Shown here: positions 8,271 through 61,473 of the stretch, piece after piece
Position numbering within the stretch: position 1 is the first letter of the stretch
Layout of the letters: every line of letters starts with the position of its first letter
Assembly: GCA_021821305.1 (NCBI GenBank)
Contig: JAKACP010000001.1
Location: 330,453 to 394,452 of the forward strand
Direction of reading: 5' to 3'
DNA length: 64,000 nucleotides
Source of the DNA: a bacterium
GTDB lineage: Bacteria; Patescibacteriota; Minisyncoccia; Moranbacterales; UBA1568
Made by a program: the position numbers and the translations under genes
Notes under the pieces: model-generated
Seen by the model: only the letters and a program-made list of their open reading frames with translations
What the model was told of the DNA's origin: nothing
The model's database searches: none

Positions 8271-8342
8271 GCCACCTTAGCTCAGTGGTAGAGCAGCGGT
8301 TTTGTAAACCGTTGGTCCTCGGTTCAAATCCGAGAGGTGGCT
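8271..8342 (+). tRNA. tRNA-Thr(TGT)
   Basis: Cloverleaf; anticodon loop TTTGTAA; acceptor GCCACCT/AGGTGGC. Confidence 0.8.
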
Positions 8343-8440
8343 CATGGAAGGGGATGGAAACATCGGAAGGTGCAACGGTCGTATTCCGCTTGTCGGAATC
8401 CCTCGTTCTCGTTCCGAGATTTGCATCCGCAGGTCTCCGT

Positions 8441-8524
8441 GGGCAGGTGGCGGAGCGGTCAATCGCAGCAGACTGTAAATCTGTCGCCCTACGGGCTACG
8501 GGGGTTCGAATCCCTCCCTGCCCA
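8441..8524 (+). tRNA. tRNA-Tyr(GTA), long variable arm
   Basis: Acceptor GGGCAGG/CCTGCCC; anticodon loop CTGTAAA; T-loop TTCGAAT. Confidence 0.85.
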
Positions 8525-8600
8525 CAGAAGCCGTTTTTGATGTCGCAAGCGTGGCAATGGAGTCGGTTTTATGAAGAAGGAGGGAGGGATGAGAAGTTTA

Positions 8601-8637
8601 TGCCCCGCAGGGGTAAATCCCTCCCTGCCCACAGAAA

Positions 8638-8643
<6 letters not shown>
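8601..8643 (+). repeat. Duplicate of the tRNA-Tyr 3' end (AATCCCTCCCTGCCCACAGAA) preceded by hairpin GCCCCGCAGGGGT; att-like scar
   Basis: 21-27 bp direct repeat of 8509-8535, placed 80 bp downstream of tRNA-Tyr. Confidence 0.6.
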
Positions 8644-8710
<67 letters not shown>

Positions 8711-8770
8711 CAATATTGACGGAATGCGCTTTTTTCCGTACAGTAGGTACATTATCTTTTTTGAATCGGT

Positions 8771-40152: not shown

Positions 40153-40224
40153 GCGCTTGGCAGGAATCGAACCTGCGACCTTCTGGACCGCAACCAGACG
40201 CTCTATCCACTGAGCTACAAGCGC
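40153..40224 (-). tRNA. tRNA-Arg(GCG)
   Basis: Acceptor GCGCTTG/CAAGCGC; perfect anticodon stem TCTGG/CCAGA; loop TTGCGGT. Confidence 0.75.
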
Positions 40225-40263
40225 AAATTTTTCTATCTTCTTCAACCAGTCAACTAGCTTGAA

Positions 40264-40341
40264 GTTGCGGTACCGCAACCAGACGCTCCCCGCCCGAACG
40301 TACCGTTCGGTACGGGCGGGTATCCACTGAGCTACAAGCGC
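40264..40341 (-). pseudogene. Partial copy of tRNA-Arg(GCG), positions 1-38, carrying a 32-nt palindromic insert in the D-loop
   Basis: GCGCTTGTAGCTCAGTGGATA [CCCGCCCGTACCGAACGGTACGTTCGGGCGGG] GAGCGTCTGGTTGCGGT, then ACCGCAA completing an 18-nt palindrome; lies 39 nt upstream of the intact gene. Confidence 0.6.
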
Positions 40342-40417
40342 AAAAAGAAACACAGCCCTCCAAGTATCTCTCTCAAATCTCCGTATTCTGCTGCAACAAT
40401 GCTCTTTTGAGGGCTCA

Positions 40418-43325: not shown

Positions 43326-44930
43326 CTAGCATCGGTTAGGCATCAAGGAAAGGTGGGTGAGCGGCTGAAACCAGCACACTGCTAACGTGCCAGGGGGTAA
43401 AACCCCTCGAGGGTTCGAATCCCTCCCTTTCCGCCAAAATTGGAAGTCTGCATTGGAACCCGAAATGGGGTCGCGCCGAAGGCGCGACACTAATGCATTC
43501 CCCCCAAAAAATTCTGAATCTGAAAGGGTTTTCCACGCTCCGCGTGGCTCAAAAAGTACGGTTCGATCCTTAATTAAAAAGTTCGAACCGACTTTTTTGA
43601 ACAAATGAGTATTTTCCTCATTTGTTCGGTCGTTTGCCAATTCCATATTGTATTTCAAAAACTTTTCGGTAAGTTCGAACCGATTATTCGCTTTTTGTTC
43701 AAAAGCCGATAATTTCTCTTTGAGAAGCTGTTTTGCGGCAACCAGAGCATTTTTAGCATCACGATATTCTTCTAGTGAAAGTGCGCTCTCCAAATACGCC
43801 GTCATCAGCTTCTCAATTTTGATTTCTAAAAGAGAAATATCGGTTTTCAAGTTATCGGCAAAAAGCGTACTCGATTGGATTTCGGATGATTGGTCTTTTC
43901 TGTTTTCTTCAATCATCCAAGAAAGCCAATCGAGGGGCAAAGAAACTTTTTTGATTTCTTCTTGAATTTGAAAAGTGATGAGCTCCTCGCGGACATACTT
44001 CTGCTCACAAGGATTTTTCCGTTTGGTACATCGCAAATAGTTATGACCTTTTTGTTGCTCGGTGGTAATGAAGCAACCACATTCTCCGCAACGGAAAAAT
44101 CCTCTGTACAAATAATCCTTTAGCCCGCGAGATTTCGGTTTTGACTTTCGGCTCATCACTTCTTGAACGGAATCAAAAAGTTTCTTTGTGATAATTGGTT
44201 CATGCTTTCCCTCAAAAATCTCGCCATTGTAAAGCATTAAACCTGTGTAAATAGGATTTTTGAGAAGTTTTTGATAATTCGACACCGCAAGTTCCTTTCC
44301 GCTTTTTCGCTTCAATCCAAGTGCGTTAAATTTGTCGCGGAGTTCTCGCAAAGTGAAAGACCCAGACGAATATGCCTCAAATGTTTTCTTAATTAAGGGT
44401 GCGATATTTTCATCAACAACAATTTTTCCACCCTTGTTTATATATCCCAACGGAGACATTTGAGGCCATATTCCGTCTTTCACTTTGTTTCTCTTTCCAC
44501 GCTTGATATTTTCCGACAAATTATCGACATAATACTTGGATTGCGAAAAAGCGATTGAGAGCATGAACTTGCCTTGCGGTGTCGGATCAAACCAAAAAGT
44601 TGGGAATTTCATTTCAGAAATTACCCCGGTATCAACGAGGTAGATTATTTTTCCTCCATCTACCGAGTTGCGAGCAAGTCTATCAGGATGCCACGCCAAA
44701 ATACCAGTAGCTTCGCCCGCTTCCATTCTCGCTATCATTTCATTAAACACAGGGCGACCTGGTATTTTGGCGGTCTGCTTTTCGACAAAGACATCTACCA
44801 CTTCCAATTGTTCTTTCAACGCGAGTTCCTTTAATTCACTTAACTGGTCGGCAATACTGCGGACTTGTCTGTCTTTGTCGTCCGTAGACTTGCGAGTATA
44901 GATGAAAAACTTTTTGGTTTGATTATTCAT
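43326..44930 (-). CDS. Large serine recombinase (resolvase domain, recombinase domain, Zn ribbon); the C-terminal ~68 codons read through IR-A and antisense to tRNA-Ser
   Basis: N-terminal YTRKSTDDKDRQVRSIADQ with catalytic Ser; recombinase domain; CGECGC zinc ribbon; the functional C-terminus probably ends near residue ~465. Confidence 0.8.
   Translation of the reverse strand: MNNQTKKFFIYTRKSTDDKDRQVRSIADQLSELKELALKEQLEVVDVFVEKQTAKIPGRPVFNEMIARMEAGEATGILAWHPDRLARNSVDGGKIIYLVDTGVISEMKFPTFWFDPTPQGKFMLSIAFSQSKYYVDNLSENIKRGKRNKVKDGIWPQMSPLGYINKGGKIVVDENIAPLIKKTFEAYSSGSFTLRELRDKFNALGLKRKSGKELAVSNYQKLLKNPIYTGLMLYNGEIFEGKHEPIITKKLFDSVQEVMSRKSKPKSRGLKDYLYRGFFRCGECGCFITTEQQKGHNYLRCTKRKNPCEQKYVREELITFQIQEEIKKVSLPLDWLSWMIEENRKDQSSEIQSSTLFADNLKTDISLLEIKIEKLMTAYLESALSLEEYRDAKNALVAAKQLLKEKLSAFEQKANNRFELTEKFLKYNMELANDRTNEENTHLFKKVGSNFLIKDRTVLFEPRGAWKTLSDSEFFGGNALVSRLRRDPISGSNADFQFWRKGRDSNPRGVLPPGTLAVCWFQPLTHLSLMPNRC
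43347..43436 (+). tRNA. tRNA-Ser(GCT), CCA encoded
   Basis: Acceptor GGAAAGG/CCTTTCC; long variable arm; anticodon loop CTGCTAA. Confidence 0.8.
43431..43550. repeat. IR-A left arm (120 bp), perfect inverted repeat of 44952-45071
   Basis: Sequence comparison; includes CCGCCA from the tRNA-Ser 3' terminus. Confidence 0.8.
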
Positions 44931-44951
44931 AGAATTGTATTGGCAAACGAC

Positions 44952-45071
44952 GAGCCACGCGGAGCGTGGAAAACCCTTTCAGATTCAGAATTTTTTGGGG
45001 GGAATGCATTAGTGTCGCGCCTTCGGCGCGACCCCATTTCGGGTTCCAATGCAGACTTCCAATTTTGGCGG
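44952..45071. repeat. IR-A right arm (120 bp)
   Basis: Reverse complement identical to 43431-43550. Confidence 0.8.
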
Positions 45072-45339
45072 TGTGTATTAGACAACGTTCGAATGTATTT
45101 TGAGCTAAATCCTGACGATGAGCCCTAATCGCACGCGCGGAGCGCGTGGTGACTTGAAACTGCATTGTACGCTCGGATTGCGTGGTGATGCGAACCAAAG
45201 CGCCTCGGACACGCTCGCGGACTCGCGTGTGCAAAGACCAAAAAATTTCCTTGCATTTTTCTCGCGTCTCCTCCCCCCACCCCTCCGCCGCGAAGCGGAA
45301 AAAGAAATGGAAAGGAAATTTTTGGTTTTGCTTCGCCGT
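45068..45339. repeat. IR-B left arm (~272 bp), near-perfect inverted repeat of 47478-47750
   Basis: Sequence comparison (2 differences). Confidence 0.8.
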
Positions 45340-45412
45340 AGTCATACCTATATTGTATTTTATCACACCATTGAGTCAAGACACAACATTGATTATACTC
45401 AAACTAACAAAT

Positions 45413-45619
45413 ATGTCTGATTCATCAAAAAAACTTGCCGTGAATATGAAAAAGATTAGGGCTCGTAAGCATATGTCGCAAGGCGACATATGCCGAGAGC
45501 TTGGCGTTGACCGCGCTTACATCAGCACGATTGAATCGGGGAAACAAAACCCTACACTTTTAACGATTGAAAGAATAGCCAAAGCTCTCGGCGTTTCGGT
45601 TGATGAGTTGTTGAAATGA
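45413..45619 (+). CDS. XRE-family HTH transcriptional regulator
   Basis: HTH_3-like motif (MSQGDICRELGVDRAYISTIESGK); low GC. Confidence 0.65.
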   Translation: MSDSSKKLAVNMKKIRARKHMSQGDICRELGVDRAYISTIESGKQNPTLLTIERIAKALGVSVDELLK

Positions 45620-45740
45620 TATAGAGCAAGACATTCTCAGAACCCACCGATGCTTTACACAGCGATTGAGAAAGTGAGGTGTGGATAACGAATCGTATGT
45701 GTGCTTGCATTATTATATACGAATATGCTAATATACGCAT

Positions 45741-46040
45741 ATGATAGATTTATGCAAAGAAATCGCCCGCATGGGTAGAGGTATCGGCAATGAAAACCGC
45801 TATCGTATTATTGAAACCCTCATGAAGGGCTCCCAAACAGTTGGTGATATTGCTGGGAAAGTCGGCATGCCACAACCGACCGTTTCTCAAAATCTTCGGG
45901 TTTTGAAAGAAGCGGATCTTGTCGTTGACGAACGACGCGGACAAGAAGTGTATTACACGATTAATGTTATGTATATGACAAAACTGCTCAAGCGTTTGGC
46001 CGATGACGTATCAAAGAGCGGTGGCAAAAAGCCACATTAA
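45741..46040 (+). CDS. ArsR/SmtB-family transcriptional regulator
   Basis: Winged HTH; YRIIETL...TVSQNLRVLKEADLV. Confidence 0.7.
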   Translation: MIDLCKEIARMGRGIGNENRYRIIETLMKGSQTVGDIAGKVGMPQPTVSQNLRVLKEADLVVDERRGQEVYYTINVMYMTKLLKRLADDVSKSGGKKPH

Positions 46041-46068
46041 CAATTAAACCAATATTAATCACATCACT

Positions 46069-46710
46069 ATGAAAACAATTATTGATTCTCTCAAGTGGCG
46101 CTATGCTACTTACACATTTGACACCAGTAAAGGAATTTCAGAAAAGGATTTGCATACCGTTCTCGAAGCGGGAAATTTAGCGGCTACCGCTTTCGGCTTA
46201 CAACCATTCGAGTTTGTGGTAGTTAAAGATCAGACCATGAAAGAGTCGCTAGTTCCGCACGCGTACGGACAACAGCATCTCGCAAAAAACTCTGCTTTGG
46301 TGGTACTAGCTATTCGTACTGATCTCGATGAAGCCTATATTACCGAGTACATTGAGCGTATCGGGCGTGTCCGTGGCGTTCCCGTGGAGATGCTTGAAGG
46401 TTTCAAGCAATCAATGCTCGGCGCAATGAGTATGAAAGGAGCTGATGGCAGGAATGCGTGGGCGCAAAAGCAAGCATACATTGCACTCGGCACCATGATG
46501 GCAGCTGCTTCAGAATTACGAATAGATAATCACGGTGCGGAAGGCTTTGACCCCGAGAAGTTCGATGAAATGCTCGGCCTTAAAGCAAAGAATCTTCACG
46601 CCACTGTACTTCTTATGCTCGGCTACCGTACTGATACACCAGATGACAAGGAGAAAATGTTCCAAATCAAGGTCCGCAAGGAGTATGACGATATCGTAAG
46701 TGTTATCTAG
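46069..46710 (+). CDS. NAD(P)H nitroreductase-family protein
   Basis: Nitroreductase fold similarity over the full length. Confidence 0.7.
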   Translation: MKTIIDSLKWRYATYTFDTSKGISEKDLHTVLEAGNLAATAFGLQPFEFVVVKDQTMKESLVPHAYGQQHLAKNSALVVLAIRTDLDEAYITEYIERIGRVRGVPVEMLEGFKQSMLGAMSMKGADGRNAWAQKQAYIALGTMMAAASELRIDNHGAEGFDPEKFDEMLGLKAKNLHATVLLMLGYRTDTPDDKEKMFQIKVRKEYDDIVSVI

Positions 46711-46731
46711 TTACTTACACGAAAACATTCT

Positions 46732-47115
46732 ATGAAAACTTTCTTCAAAACGCTTACGACACAGCAAAAGGTTGGCTATGTGCTCGCTACGCTTCTCTCG
46801 ATTCTTTTGCTTCTACCCGCGACCCTCAAAATCATAAGTTTCCCGATGTTCGTCGAACTCTTTACAGCACACAACATTGGCGAGTTTCTGACCGTTATCG
46901 GCCTTGGCCTCGCAGTTTCGAGTATTCTCTACGCGATACCTCGCACTAAAATGCTCGGCACCCTTCTTTTGTCAGCGTACTTCGGCGGCGCAATCGTCTT
47001 TCACATGACTGCTGACGAGCCGTTTATCATTCAGTCGGTTGTTCTTGTACTGATGTGGCTCTTTGCTTGGCTTCGTGATCCGAATGTATTTCTTCCAAAG
47101 TACTCAGATGAGTAA
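46732..47115 (+). CDS. DoxX-like membrane protein
   Basis: 127 aa, 4 TM helices, DoxX-like pattern. Confidence 0.45.
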   Translation: MKTFFKTLTTQQKVGYVLATLLSILLLLPATLKIISFPMFVELFTAHNIGEFLTVIGLGLAVSSILYAIPRTKMLGTLLLSAYFGGAIVFHMTADEPFIIQSVVLVLMWLFAWLRDPNVFLPKYSDE

Positions 47116-47477
47116 AGAGGTCTTTTTGAAGTTAAGGGAGCCAACCCCCGTCGTTTTATAATTTTCCTCAAAAACGGCGGGGGTTGTTGTGCGCGCACTG
47201 GGTGGGGCAAGCACATACAGATTTGTTTGTGCCTCAGCACAATCCATATTCCTTTGAATCACCACTAAACTCTCTCGAAGCCACCAAGCGAACACACACA
47301 ACACCGAAGCAGCCAGCGCGAGCGAATGCGAGCGGGCTATGCGAAGGCGGTTGTGTGTGGTTCGCGGACGTTAGAGTTACCACCAAACGCGGATACGGAT
47401 GCGCCTCGGTCGCCGTGAGGGTGGAGAAAAGAGCAATCAAAAGTGATAAACTAATAGTGCTTTTTTCGGAGACTGAA

Positions 47478-47750
47478 ACGGCGAAGCAAAACCAAAAATT
47501 TCCTTTCCATTTCTTTTTCCGCTTCGCGGTGGAGGGGGTGGGGGGAGGAGACGCGAGAAAAATGCAAGGAAATTTTTTGGTCTTTGCACACGCGAGTCCG
47601 CGAGCGTGTCCGAGGCGCTTTGGTTCGCATCACCACGCAATCCGAGCGTACAATGCAGTTTCAAGTCACCACGCGCTCCGCGCGTGCGATTAGGGCTCAT
47701 CGTCAGGATTTAGCTCAAAATACATTCGAACGTTGTCTAATACACACCGC
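47478..47750. repeat. IR-B right arm
   Basis: Reverse complement matches 45068-45339. Confidence 0.8.
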
Positions 47751-48211
47751 AGAAGTGAAAGAGGAGCCATTTTGTATGGCTCCTTTTTTGCTTCTATGAT
47801 GAACGCATTCGGAGTTTATGCCCCGAAGGGGTAAATCCCTCCCTTTCCGCATCAAGCTCATAGTATCGAGGGTGACCCGAGAGCCTCGAATGAGCAACAT
47901 AAAACCAAACCGCCGGTAAATGGCGGTTTTATTCTTTCTGATCTATAGATCTTCTTTACTGTATGATCCCTCTCTTTTGACTGTCACGGACAATCTTACT
48001 TTGGTCCCATAAGCTCGAGAAATTTCATGGGGTCTATCGAGAAACCGCCTATACGAACCGAGAGATGGAGGTGAGGGCCGAGAGAATAGCCCGTATTGCC
48101 GCTCTTGGCTACGGGGTCACCTTTTCCCACGTTGTCGCCCGCTTCTACACCGATTTCGGAAAGATGCATGTACATGGTCATGATACCCAATCCATGATCA
48201 ATGATGACGGT
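47747..48211. repeat. 465-bp direct repeat DR-1; includes the att-like copy of the tRNA-Ser 3' end, two terminator hairpins and the last 72 codons of an M23 peptidase gene. Identical to 60277-60741
   Basis: 100% identity at a constant offset of 12,530 bp. Confidence 0.85.
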
Positions 48212-48958
48212 ATTGCCGAAGTTTCTCAGGCTTTGGGCAAGGACCACCTTGCCGGAGTTCATGGCATATACCGACGTTCCCTCCGCTGCTCGAAAATCCG
48301 TGCCTTGATGGCTGAGACTTACGGATCCAGTCTGCCTCTTGTAGCCATAAGTATCGGTAACGGTAAGAGATCCATCAAGCGGTAAGCGGAACTCTCCGCT
48401 CCAGAGTCGTTCCGGGCCTATGATGGTGGTGACAGAGTTGAGGATAGCCGCGTCCCGTGACAAAGTGCTGGTAAGCTCGTGCTCCGCTTGGGGAGTATTG
48501 CCGCCAAGTTGCTCCGGGATGTCGAATTCTTCCGTAGCGACAACCCTTTGGCCGATCTCAAACTCCTCTTCGATTTTCCGGCCGTCCTTGAGGGTGAGGA
48601 CGATCGGATACGAACCGGGCTTTTTATGGAAATCGATTCCTACAAGTGCGGCAACCTTACCCTCATCAGCAAACACGGCAAGCGGCTTGCCATCAAGAGC
48701 AAGCGACTCGATGTTCGAGATATCGCTGATGCCGTCCAGGGTAATCCGCGCGGGCTCTCCCTGGATGAGAGCAGTGGGGAAAACGGAAAGCGATACCGGT
48801 TCCACGGCGGAAACAATGCCGGGTTTTTCTGCCTCCATGGCTTGTGATTCGGATTCTGCTTCAGGCTGGTCTTTTAGCTGTGGCAAGGCAAAGTAGAGAG
48901 CGAGGAATAAGGCTGGTAAAGTGAGCCAAAGGAGTGTTCTCATCCCTGGATTGTACAC
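47996..48958 (-). CDS. M23-family (LytM-like) metallopeptidase, paralog 1, with N-terminal TM anchor
   Basis: HxxxD (IDHGLG) and GNTGYSLGPHLHLSV motifs. Confidence 0.75.
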   Translation of the reverse strand: MYNPGMRTLLWLTLPALFLALYFALPQLKDQPEAESESQAMEAEKPGIVSAVEPVSLSVFPTALIQGEPARITLDGISDISNIESLALDGKPLAVFADEGKVAALVGIDFHKKPGSYPIVLTLKDGRKIEEEFEIGQRVVATEEFDIPEQLGGNTPQAEHELTSTLSRDAAILNSVTTIIGPERLWSGEFRLPLDGSLTVTDTYGYKRQTGSVSLSHQGTDFRAAEGTSVYAMNSGKVVLAQSLRNFGNTVIIDHGLGIMTMYMHLSEIGVEAGDNVGKGDPVAKSGNTGYSLGPHLHLSVRIGGFSIDPMKFLELMGPK

Positions 48959-59079: not shown

Positions 59080-60057
59080 TTACCTTGAGCCCATAAGCTC
59101 GAGAAATTTCTGGGGATCTATCGAGAAACCGCCTATGCGGACCGAGAGATGGAGATGGGGGCCGAGAGAATAGCCCGTATTACCGCTCTTAGCTATGAGA
59201 TCTCCTTTTTCCACGCTATCACCCAGTTTTGCATCGGTTTCGGAAAGGTGCATGTAAAGCGTCATTAAACCCAAACCATGGTCAATGATGACGGTATTCC
59301 CATAGTTCCTGAAGCTCTTGGAAAAGACTACCTTGCCAGAGTTCATGGCATAGACAGATGTCCCCTCAGACGCTCGAAAATCTGTGCCTTGATGCATGAG
59401 ACTTACGGATCCTGTCTGCCTGCTGTAACCATAGACATCTGTGACAGTAGGAGATCCGTTGAGAGGGAGCCGGAATTGTCCGCTCCAGAGCCTCTCTGGG
59501 CTTATGGTTGTGGTAATAGAGTTAAGGATGACGGTGTCCTGCGCTAAGGTACTGGTGAGCTCATGCTCCGCTTGGGGCGTATTGCCTCCCAGCTGCTCAG
59601 GGATGTCAAATTCTTCCGTAGCAACAGTCCTTTTCCCAACCTCAATCTTTTCTTCGATTTTCTGACCGTCTTCAAGAGTGAGAACGATTGGATACACACC
59701 GGGTTTTTTATGTGGATCGATACCGACTAGCGCCACAAGCCTTCCTTCATCAACAAATACGGAGAGTGGCTTGTCATCGAGGGTAAGTGATTGAATGGGT
59801 GCGGCAGAGACGAGGCCGGCTATGGTAATCCGCGCGGGCTCTCCCTGGATGAGAGTAGTCGGGAAGACAGAAAGTGATACCGGCTCTACGGTGGAGATGG
59901 GGCTAGATTCTTCCGTCTGTATGAGTGGTGATTCAAGTGTTGCTTCGGGCTGACTTTTTAGTTGCGGCACGATAAAATATGTCGCGAGGAATAAAATTGG
60001 TATAGCACTCCAGAGAAGTAGTTTCATCACTCTATTATACAGCTTTTCCATCAGCAT
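59080..60057 (-). CDS. M23-family metallopeptidase, paralog 2 (diverged)
   Basis: Same architecture and motifs as paralogs 1 and 3. Confidence 0.75.
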   Translation of the reverse strand: MLMEKLYNRVMKLLLWSAIPILFLATYFIVPQLKSQPEATLESPLIQTEESSPISTVEPVSLSVFPTTLIQGEPARITIAGLVSAAPIQSLTLDDKPLSVFVDEGRLVALVGIDPHKKPGVYPIVLTLEDGQKIEEKIEVGKRTVATEEFDIPEQLGGNTPQAEHELTSTLAQDTVILNSITTTISPERLWSGQFRLPLNGSPTVTDVYGYSRQTGSVSLMHQGTDFRASEGTSVYAMNSGKVVFSKSFRNYGNTVIIDHGLGLMTLYMHLSETDAKLGDSVEKGDLIAKSGNTGYSLGPHLHLSVRIGGFSIDPQKFLELMGSR

Positions 60058-60276: not shown

Positions 60277-60741
60277 CCGCAGAAGTGAAAGAGGAGCCAT
60301 TTTGTATGGCTCCTTTTTTGCTTCTATGATGAACGCATTCGGAGTTTATGCCCCGAAGGGGTAAATCCCTCCCTTTCCGCATCAAGCTCATAGTATCGAG
60401 GGTGACCCGAGAGCCTCGAATGAGCAACATAAAACCAAACCGCCGGTAAATGGCGGTTTTATTCTTTCTGATCTATAGATCTTCTTTACTGTATGATCCC
60501 TCTCTTTTGACTGTCACGGACAATCTTACTTTGGTCCCATAAGCTCGAGAAATTTCATGGGGTCTATCGAGAAACCGCCTATACGAACCGAGAGATGGAG
60601 GTGAGGGCCGAGAGAATAGCCCGTATTGCCGCTCTTGGCTACGGGGTCACCTTTTCCCACGTTGTCGCCCGCTTCTACACCGATTTCGGAAAGATGCATG
60701 TACATGGTCATGATACCCAATCCATGATCAATGATGACGGT
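60277..60741. repeat. 465-bp direct repeat DR-2 (identical to 47747-48211)
   Basis: Sequence comparison. Confidence 0.85.
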
Positions 60742-61473
60742 TTTTCCGAAATTCCGAAGGGTTCCGGTATAGGCCACTTCCCCGGAGTTTATGGCATGGA
60801 CGGGTGTTCCTTCGGCAGCCCGGAAATCCGTTCCCAGGTGACTCAGGCTCACCGACCCCGTTTTTCTGCTGTAGCCGTAGGTGTCGGTGACCATCGGATC
60901 GCCTCCAAGAGGAAGTCGGAATGGACCGCTCCATAGCTGTTCCGGGTTTACCTTCGCGGTCACCGAGTCGAGCACGGACGAATCCGTGGACAGGGTGGCC
61001 GTAAGTTCGTGTTCGGCTTTGGGAGTATTGCCACCCAGTTGTTCCGGGATATCGAATTCCGCCGTAGCCACTACCCGCGGCTTCACTTCCAGGTTTTCCT
61101 TGAATATCCGGCTATCATCCAACGTGAGGACGAGCGGATACGAGCCTGGCTTCTTATGGAAATCGATACCGACCAGCGCGGCCATCCCGCTCTCATCGGA
61201 AAATACGGGAACGGGCTTGTCATCGAAAGTGAGTGATTCGATGTCAGAGAGGGAAGCGACGCCGCGTATGATGATCCGCGCGGGCTCTCCCGGGATGGCG
61301 GCAGCCGGGTCAGGAGCAAGGGATACCAGTGTCTCGGGCGAGGGCATGCCGGGTTTCTCTGCCTCTTCCCGTGGCGGTTGAGGTGCCTTCTCGGGATTAT
61401 TTTTTTGCTCCGGCACAACAAAATACAGAATCAGCAAGAGTATGGGGAGAGTGATCGCGAGAAGTGTTTTCAT
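60526..61473 (-). CDS. M23-family metallopeptidase, paralog 3
   Basis: M23 motifs; 3' end identical to paralog 1. Confidence 0.75.
   Translation of the reverse strand: MKTLLAITLPILLLILYFVVPEQKNNPEKAPQPPREEAEKPGMPSPETLVSLAPDPAAAIPGEPARIIIRGVASLSDIESLTFDDKPVPVFSDESGMAALVGIDFHKKPGSYPLVLTLDDSRIFKENLEVKPRVVATAEFDIPEQLGGNTPKAEHELTATLSTDSSVLDSVTAKVNPEQLWSGPFRLPLGGDPMVTDTYGYSRKTGSVSLSHLGTDFRAAEGTPVHAINSGEVAYTGTLRNFGKTVIIDHGLGIMTMYMHLSEIGVEAGDNVGKGDPVAKSGNTGYSLGPHLHLSVRIGGFSIDPMKFLELMGPK

Follow-up and report, generated by a model that had tools for sequence, protein, structure and literature searches.

tRNA genes are the classic landing sites of mobile DNA, and the known agents carry their own integrase. 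When genomic islands integrate at a tRNA gene, the intact gene is regenerated by the incoming DNA and the original 3′ end is displaced as a direct repeat (attR) that begins inside the T loop; in tandem island arrays, newer insertions lie nearer the tRNA (Islander/TIGER framework, PMC4383910, PMC7192596). Large serine recombinase elements also occupy tRNA or tmRNA 3′ ends, for example the Dehalococcoides ssrA islands (PMC3146451). Folded single-strand recombination sites are represented by integron attC and by the CTX-phi attP(+) site used by XerCD (PMC3442271). The IS200/IS605 family and its non-autonomous PATE derivatives have hairpin-defined ends, and tRNA minihelices and tRNA-like structures (YrlA, mascRNA, viral TLS) combine acceptor-like and T-stem helices with a T-loop-like sequence. 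Here we analysed a 64,000-nt stretch of a Candidatus Moranbacteria (CPR) genome (the window), in which the end of tRNA-Tyr is duplicated. Our data suggest that this duplicate is one copy of a widespread, apparently undescribed gene-less insertion cassette that sits behind many kinds of tRNA genes in several bacterial phyla and is marked by a conserved hairpin.

The duplication reported by the first-pass annotation is real. The 21-nt end of tRNA-Tyr, AATCCCTCCCTGCCCACAGAA, recurs 107 nt downstream and has no other match in the window at up to three mismatches, with 0 expected in shuffles. With a 1-nt indel the identity continues through GCCGTT, the first bases of tRNA-Thr(GGT), giving 27–28 nt. 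The hairpin sequence GCCCCGNAGGGGTAAATCCCTCCCT occurs three times in the window, with 0 expected, and the shared non-tRNA prefix is longer than the annotation had noted (AGTTTATGCCCCGNAGGGGTAAAT). The two copies linked to tRNA-Ser are not independent, since they lie in a 100% identical block that continues at lower identity through M23-peptidase paralogues. The tRNA-Tyr cluster continues after tRNA-Thr(GGT) with rpmG, tRNA-Trp, and tRNA-Glu. The features of the window are collected in the table. A 5′-end duplicate at tRNA-Arg(GCG), unlike the 3′-end modules, was also observed.

Features of the window (positions in nt; multiple intervals in one row belong to the same feature).
Position	Strand	Feature	Basis
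8271–8343		tRNA-Thr(TGT)	
8441–8525	+	tRNA-Tyr(GTA); in the cassette model its present 3′ part, from A58, would have been supplied by the cassette	ARAGORN; Rfam tRNA, 59.7 bits
8509–8529; 8616–8636		AATCCCTCCCTGCCCACAGAA, exact copies	Mismatch search and shuffles
8509–8535	+	Proximal copy (RA0) of the duplicated segment: T-loop AAT, T-stem 3′ strand, acceptor 3′ strand, AGAA, GCCGTT	Matches 8616–8643 with one extra A
8527–8570	+	Left hairpin of the cassette, in the position where other copies carry an intrinsic terminator	Fold (whole spacer −43.3 kcal/mol, z −3.5); cassette anatomy
8579–8590	+	Left arm (LA), GGAGGGAGGGAT, complementary to the T-stem 3′ strand and the start of the acceptor 3′ strand of the right arm	Folds; covariation across 66 distinct modules
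8588–8620	+	Conserved ~34-nt block GGA-TGA-GA-AGTTTATGCCCC-GCA-GGGGTAAAT-CC, with a T-loop-like 5′ part and a GC hairpin (8602–8613) with a GNA triloop	Column frequencies over 105 unique copies; pattern scans
8595–8618; 47813–47836; 60343–60366		Shared prefix AGTTTATGCCCCGNAGGGGTAAAT	Sequence comparison
8602; 47820; 60350		Matches of GCCCCGNAGGGGTAAATCCCTCCCT (first position)	Pattern scan
8616–8637	+	Distal copy (RA1): displaced original tRNA-Tyr 3′ end, followed by the ancestral 5-nt spacer before tRNA-Thr	Empty-site relative L137 reads ...CCCAC-AGCAA-GCCGTTGTAGC
8638–8711	+	tRNA-Thr(GGT), the ancestral immediate neighbour of tRNA-Tyr	ARAGORN; comparison with relatives
40204–40227; 40321–40344	−	First 21 nt of tRNA-Arg(GCG) plus 3 nt of flank, duplicated exactly 117 nt upstream of the gene	
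43326–44930	−	ORF of a large serine recombinase	Pfam Resolvase/Recombinase/Zn_ribbon_recom; NCBIfam CcrB/XisF-like hits
43347–43436	+	tRNA-Ser(GCT)	ARAGORN
43435–47750		Large-serine-recombinase element inserted at the very 3′ end of tRNA-Ser; junction tetranucleotide CCGC at 43431–43434 and 47747–47750; not part of the hairpin module	Pfam hits; internal inverted junction copy; right-end homology with L099 and L019 up to CACCGC
43431–43550; 44952–45071		120-bp perfect inverted repeats flanking the recombinase gene	Self-comparison
44952–45339		Internal inverted copy of the circular junction, revcomp(47478–47750 + 43431–43550)	Self-comparison
45068–45339; 47478–47750		273-bp inverted repeats flanking the cargo	Self-comparison
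47747–48046; 60277–60576		100% identical block	Self-comparison
47747–48958; 59080–60057; 60277–61473		Three M23-peptidase paralogues	
47751–47850	+	tRNA-Ser hairpin module: terminator (47762–47789), degenerate left arm, core 47813–47836, displaced tRNA-Ser 3′ end 47834–47850	Pattern scan; sequence comparison
60277–60380	+	Second, 100% identical copy of the tRNA-Ser module, a passenger of a segmental repeat that includes an M23-peptidase paralogue	Self-comparison

The shared hairpin is the centre of a conserved ~34-nt block, GGA-NNN-GA-AGTTTATGCCCC-GNA-GGGGTAAAT-CC. A scan of one genome per species for GCCCCGNAGGGGTAAATCCCTCC, a pattern restricted to a CCCTCC T stem, gave five loci, in Peregrinibacteria, Peribacteria, Jacksonbacteria, and two Oscillospiraceae. 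Four of the five lie just downstream of a tRNA-Ser or tRNA-Tyr; the second Oscillospiraceae locus (L003; L numbers denote the retrieved loci and contigs) shows no tRNA in the sequence retrieved. A metagenome scan for AGTTTATGCCCCNNNGGGGYAAAT gave at least 120 stretches, from human gut, rumen, landfill and groundwater, lake, and seawater samples. Over all loci there are 143 copies, although the invariance of the 24-nt core is partly imposed by the search pattern. Of the 123 with at least 200 nt upstream, 78 have a same-strand tRNA ending within 200 nt, covering 20 anticodon types and 12 amino acids; the core lies 15–100 nt downstream of the tRNA gene, with a modal spacing of 62 nt. Many of the remaining copies follow a partial tRNA or another module. 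The module is essentially absent from mobile-DNA collections: no hit was found among 50,697 phage records (INPHARED) or 72,556 plasmids (PLSDB), and the two IMG/VR hits are host flank of a prophage call. A 31-nt hit in an E. coli plasmid was a chance match next to an IS2 remnant. Scans against Rfam 15 (E ≤ 1) matched only tRNA and, in relatives, a group I intron, with nothing over the modules. Full-text literature searches, including one with the literal sequence, found no description.

Read along the tRNA strand, one unit starts with the tRNA up to ...GGTTCGA, followed by AT, the T-stem 3′ strand, the acceptor 3′ strand, and the discriminator (with or without CCA). Next comes, in most units, an A-run/hairpin/T-run terminator, which is absent in the shortest units. 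The left arm follows and copies the T-stem 5′ strand, sometimes with part of the acceptor 5′ strand. GGA, three variable bases (TTC, GTC, or TGA), and GA come next, forming a T-loop-like pentanucleotide (TTCGA, GTCGA, or TGAGA) followed by AG, and then the conserved hairpin TTTATGCCCC-GNA-GGGGTA. The right arm is always a copy of the local tRNA from T-loop A58 to the 3′ end, typically identical over 17–23 nt, and this direct repeat holds in 78 metagenome copies. In 66 distinct modules the left arm pairs with the right arm in 77.3% of cells, compared with 69.6% in shuffles (0/500) and 50% or less when the partner is slid; the five T-stem pairs carry many double changes. Wobble pairs in the arm helices favour the tRNA-sense strand (G-T 47 versus A-C 20, p=0.0013), on which the hairpin is therefore better. 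The whole structure folds as one long hairpin (−27 to −35 kcal/mol, z −3 to −5) that resembles a tRNA top half with a hairpin inserted after T-loop position 58. Units stack in arrays of one to four, with different terminators and in different orders between strains of one gut species, and the most distal copies are the most degenerate. Array shuffling could, however, come from homologous recombination alone.

Contigs of relatives, retrieved through their L33 homologues, keep the order EF-Ts, TPR protein, tRNA cluster, L33, but the spacer between tRNA-Tyr and tRNA-Thr differs. In the relative L137 the site is empty (5 nt, AGCAA). The spacer is 39 nt in L133 (a plain hairpin), 87 nt in L130 (a degenerate unit), 112 nt in the window and in L126 (the short core), 126 nt in L131 (another filler), 147 nt in L132 (a different core), and 189 nt in L136 (a long branched core, whose left part and GGGATGAGAAG box are homologous to the window's unit). 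The site is thus variably occupied and the unit is not conserved in place; this is an insertion polymorphism. In L126, a 99.2%-identical contig, 9 of 13 mismatches fall inside the 107-nt unit, including two in the core, and none falls in 181 nt of other spacers. These dense mismatches could reflect an imported recombination tract rather than neutral decay.

The same layout (a left arm, a T-loop-like box, a structured insert, and a copy of the local tRNA end) also follows tRNA-Thr(GGT), tRNA-Glu, and tRNA-Trp in these relatives, with other conserved cores. A ~110-nt structured insert (GGGGTCGGGAAAC...GTTTCCCGTTTGGGGTGAC...AGAGGGCGGAAGCCCTATAGA, with GNRA-type loops) is shared by units after tRNA-Thr(GGT) and tRNA-Glu (L133 1752–2000 and 2423–2680; L136 1761–2000); it is closed by arms that match each tRNA and has no Rfam match. 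A second long core (GGGATGAGAA-AGCGGAGCGATGTTT...AAACCGCGAGC...CCG-AATCC) occupies the same frame as the short hairpin in L136 (about 1560–1680) and in an unrelated metagenome contig (L119, minus strand). The core therefore seems to be an exchangeable module. In L131 (2339–2604, compared with L132 2354–2553) a whole tRNA-Trp gene of a different allele, plus 75 nt, has replaced the resident gene; only the last 18 nt of the old gene (GATTCCCTCCGCTCCTGC) remain, and the right breakpoint is again in the T loop. L132 1151–1456 holds a full-length tRNA-Tyr pseudogene with two GC hairpins inserted in its T loop, preceded by a partial tRNA-Thr(TGT) copy, upstream of the functional tRNA-Tyr. In some Moranbacteria relatives (L133–L135, about 1379–1582), tRNA-Tyr carries a ~230-nt group I intron in the anticodon loop (Rfam Intron_gpI, 42 bits, E 9e-8), so that ARAGORN misses the gene; this agrees with a recent report on Patescibacteria tRNA introns (PMC13011429).

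The recombinases found near modules proved to be separable from them. The internal inverted copy of the serine-recombinase element's circular junction, in which the two ends are joined through a shared CCGC, lacks the module. Homologous elements in L099 (recombinase 60% identical) and L019 end at the same CACCGC directly upstream of their own modules, and the three homologous elements diverge after that point. In the window this right end is 63 nt upstream of the core; the hairpin module lies just outside the element and pre-dates it. The inverted repeats suggest an invertible or rearranged element, or possibly an assembly effect. The recombinase ORF has no stop until 43326, such that its last ~37 codons read antisense through tRNA-Ser(GCT); the L099 homologue is cut off by its contig end at residue 456, about where the 120-bp repeat begins, and cannot show where the native C-terminus lies. 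Two of the M23-peptidase paralogues share a repeat that is 100% identical for the first ~300 nt, then falls to ~74%, and starts exactly at the CCGC where the element ends; gene conversion, duplication, or recombinase-mediated rearrangement could each be the cause. Tyrosine integrases (27–96% identical to each other) lie with their 3′ ends about 150 nt downstream of modules in at least nine loci. In locus L009, however, the island next to tRNA-Arg has a conventional partial-tRNA attR that is followed by a separate module. No further right-arm copies were found downstream in the sequence available. A Y1_Tnp gene lies between tRNA-Ser and a module in locus L074 (3700–4443), and tblastn found a Y1 transposase next to no other module. 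This IS200 was tested as a possible autonomous parent and rejected after ten other insertions of the same IS were retrieved (L138–L147). The same IS, very abundant in the gut (more than 7900 TnpA homologues at E ≤ 1e-40), occurs at ten unrelated intergenic sites with its own ends (GGTTGTACC...TTTTGACT), inserted right after intrinsic-terminator T-runs (...GTTTT|GGTTGTACC, with right end ...CCGGAGGTTTTGACT). In L074 it simply sits in the unit's terminator, as a secondary insertion. No enzyme is therefore tied to the module.

The interpretation given in the first-pass annotation is supported only in part. It had proposed that the Tyr and Ser duplicates share a hairpin prefix because one integrase family targets a segment common to these tRNAs, with the tRNA-Tyr site decayed or excised and the tRNA-Ser site occupied. 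The duplicates do belong to one family of insertion scars at tRNA 3′ ends, and the Tyr–Thr spacer is an insertion. Neither observation that it had named as refuting was made, that is, a motif occurring widely without association with tRNA 3′ ends or a spacer conserved and functional in all relatives. The family does not, however, depend on the GGGTTCGAATCCCTCCC segment shared by tRNA-Tyr and tRNA-Ser, as the same core follows tRNAs of 20 anticodon types with quite different T stems and acceptor ends. The tRNA-Ser site is not occupied by an element bounded by the hairpin copy; the serine-recombinase island is bounded by CCGC, which corrects the map of the window. No integrase family is consistently associated, and a large decayed element at tRNA-Tyr is not supported, since the size and layout of that copy are those of the standard 55–110-nt cassette seen in most loci.

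We favour, with a probability of roughly 0.55, a family of small (55–110 nt), non-coding insertion cassettes aimed at the T loop of tRNA genes, of which the tRNA-Tyr duplicate would be a relic copy. In this view insertion keeps the tRNA gene intact: the cassette supplies a replacement 3′ end from A58/A59 to the discriminator or CCA, usually with a terminator, and the original 3′ end is pushed downstream, so that left arm, core, and displaced end form one long hairpin. The anatomy, the link to many tRNA species and several phyla, the presence/absence polymorphism with its empty site, the stacking with decay of distal copies, and the independence from the nearby recombinases are established by the comparisons above. 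That the cassettes are moved in trans, by an enzyme that recognises the conserved hairpin on the tRNA-sense strand, is inferred, as is the inactivity of the window's Tyr and Ser copies. The sense-strand-specific pairing, the GNA triloop (a very stable single-stranded DNA loop), and the bulged box suggest recognition of a folded single strand. We suggest a one-strand exchange on such a substrate, as at integron attC sites or the CTX-phi attP site (PMC3442271), or an HUH-type single-strand transposase, with much less confidence in any particular enzyme. The mobility mechanism is conjecture, as a 60–110-nt double-stranded circle is an unlikely recombination substrate. No enzyme, circular form, or autonomous parent was found in our searches, and the model offers no tested account of how both arms come to match each new tRNA species. 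A stronger form of the model, which we regard as doubtful, is that the cassettes are programmable: the two arms would specify, by copying or pairing with, the T arm and acceptor end of any tRNA gene, such that the cassette could home to a T loop and swap the gene's 3′ end, possibly as a dumbbell-shaped single-stranded intermediate. If the cassette is mobile in trans, it points to an unrecognised enzyme–site pair with the T loop as a near-universal target, explains part of the unusual variability of tRNA clusters in reduced CPR genomes, and is a source of false att sites and false island boundaries in island-mapping pipelines.

Other explanations appear less likely. The module could be a functional small RNA, a tRNA-like minihelix (acceptor and T arm) with a protein-binding hairpin in its T loop, co-transcribed with or read through from the tRNA and processed by RNase P, RNase Z, or the CCA-adding enzyme; this would be a new tRNA-mimicking family. 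The stable fold, the arm covariation, and the sense-strand wobble bias are consistent with it. In about 90% of copies the T-loop-like 5 nt keep U54- and A58-like positions, the 3-nt variable bulge plus GA resembles a kink-turn, the right arm usually ends in CCA, and related units carry longer branched cores closed by the same arms. We nevertheless consider it unlikely, since most copies sit directly after a terminator T-run with no room for a promoter, the site is empty in a close relative, distal copies decay, and the core is mutated between the window and a 99.2%-identical strain. In some families the left arm also pairs with the ACCA end, which a processing or charging substrate would leave free, and no Rfam family matches. 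Ordinary attR scars of islands of one integrase family, with the small units left after deletion of the cargo, would fit the classic direct repeat with the intact gene on one side and the recombinases found near modules. This reading, somewhat less likely still, is already weakened by the separate junctions of the serine-recombinase element and the L009 island, by the two unrelated superfamilies to which the recombinases belong, and by the near absence of the core from phage, plasmid, and viral collections; the distance between terminator and core is regular across unrelated tRNAs, which random deletion endpoints would not give. Least likely, the hairpin may be the end, or a single-hairpin remnant, of an IS200/IS605-type (Y1 HUH) transposon that inserts 3′ of the T-loop pentanucleotide TTCGA and captured a tRNA 3′ end at its left end, the small units being PATE-like derivatives. 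The strand-specific hairpin with its GNA triloop, the insertion point immediately 3′ of a fixed pentanucleotide, the TTCGA-like pentanucleotide just 5′ of the hairpin foot, the wobble bias, and the Y1_Tnp gene in L074 favour it. Against it, the L074 transposase belongs to a generic multi-copy IS200, no other module locus encodes a Y1 transposase, the left-side hairpins are diverse unrelated terminators rather than copies of the core, and IS200/IS605 elements make no target duplication, whereas the unit duplicates 17–28 nt of target.

Most of the further identities considered were rejected. A hidden intron-containing or permuted tRNA is rejected, as restoring TTCGAAT in 129 modules gave 0 tRNA predictions spanning the site. 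Origin from mature tRNA by reverse transcription is not supported, because the right arm follows the gene, with or without an encoded CCA, rather than the mature tRNA. A fixed-length target-site duplication is not supported, since the identical run varies from 17 to 28 nt, and a MITE (DDE transposon derivative) is not indicated, as the inverted arms are copies of the target and not of the element. The ~34-nt block has, in layout alone, the arrangement of a Cas6-type repeat (a hairpin plus a 7–8-nt tail before the tRNA-matching segment), as a CRISPR-type repeat with a self-targeting (homing) spacer would. Resemblances to hammerhead, box C/D, bulge-helix-bulge intron, XerD arm of dif, and oriT nic site each fail on at least one defining position.

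Compared with tRNA minihelices and tRNA-like structures, the module shares the helices and the T-loop-like sequence, but a hairpin is inserted at T-loop position 58/59, the unit usually follows a terminator, no Rfam model matches, and there is no evidence of expression. With IS200/IS605 and PATE elements it shares strand specificity, a hairpin, and insertion 3′ of a short fixed sequence; it differs in having only one conserved hairpin and no associated Y1 transposase, and in carrying a copy of the target's 3′ flank. Like integron attC and CTX-phi attP(+), it is an imperfect palindrome whose stem imitates the target duplex, with bulged bases on one strand, a variable apical structure (short or branched cores), strand-specific pairing, and stacking of cassettes next to a primary site. 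The conserved block contains no R″/R′ core sites (RYYYAAC/GTTRRRY), there is no adjacent intI or dif site, no recurrent integrase family lies beside arrays, and the target is a tRNA T loop; recombinase involvement remains an inference by analogy. The window does contain a large serine recombinase element at tRNA-Ser(GCT), with the expected domains, short crossover, and reconstructable attP junction, but this is a separate, later insertion. Displaced tRNA ends such as the attR of tRNA-integrating islands are textbook, and the module shares with them the direct repeat that begins inside the T loop, the intact tRNA gene at one end, the empty site in a relative, and, in our reading, the tRNA-proximal position of newer insertions. 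Between its repeats, however, there is in most copies only a hairpin or terminator, and where genes do lie there they belong to separable secondary elements. The unit is 55–110 nt with a regular layout, and its element-side arm is a conserved hairpin shared across at least 20 tRNA species and several phyla, from CPR to gut and rumen Firmicutes and groundwater and marine lineages.
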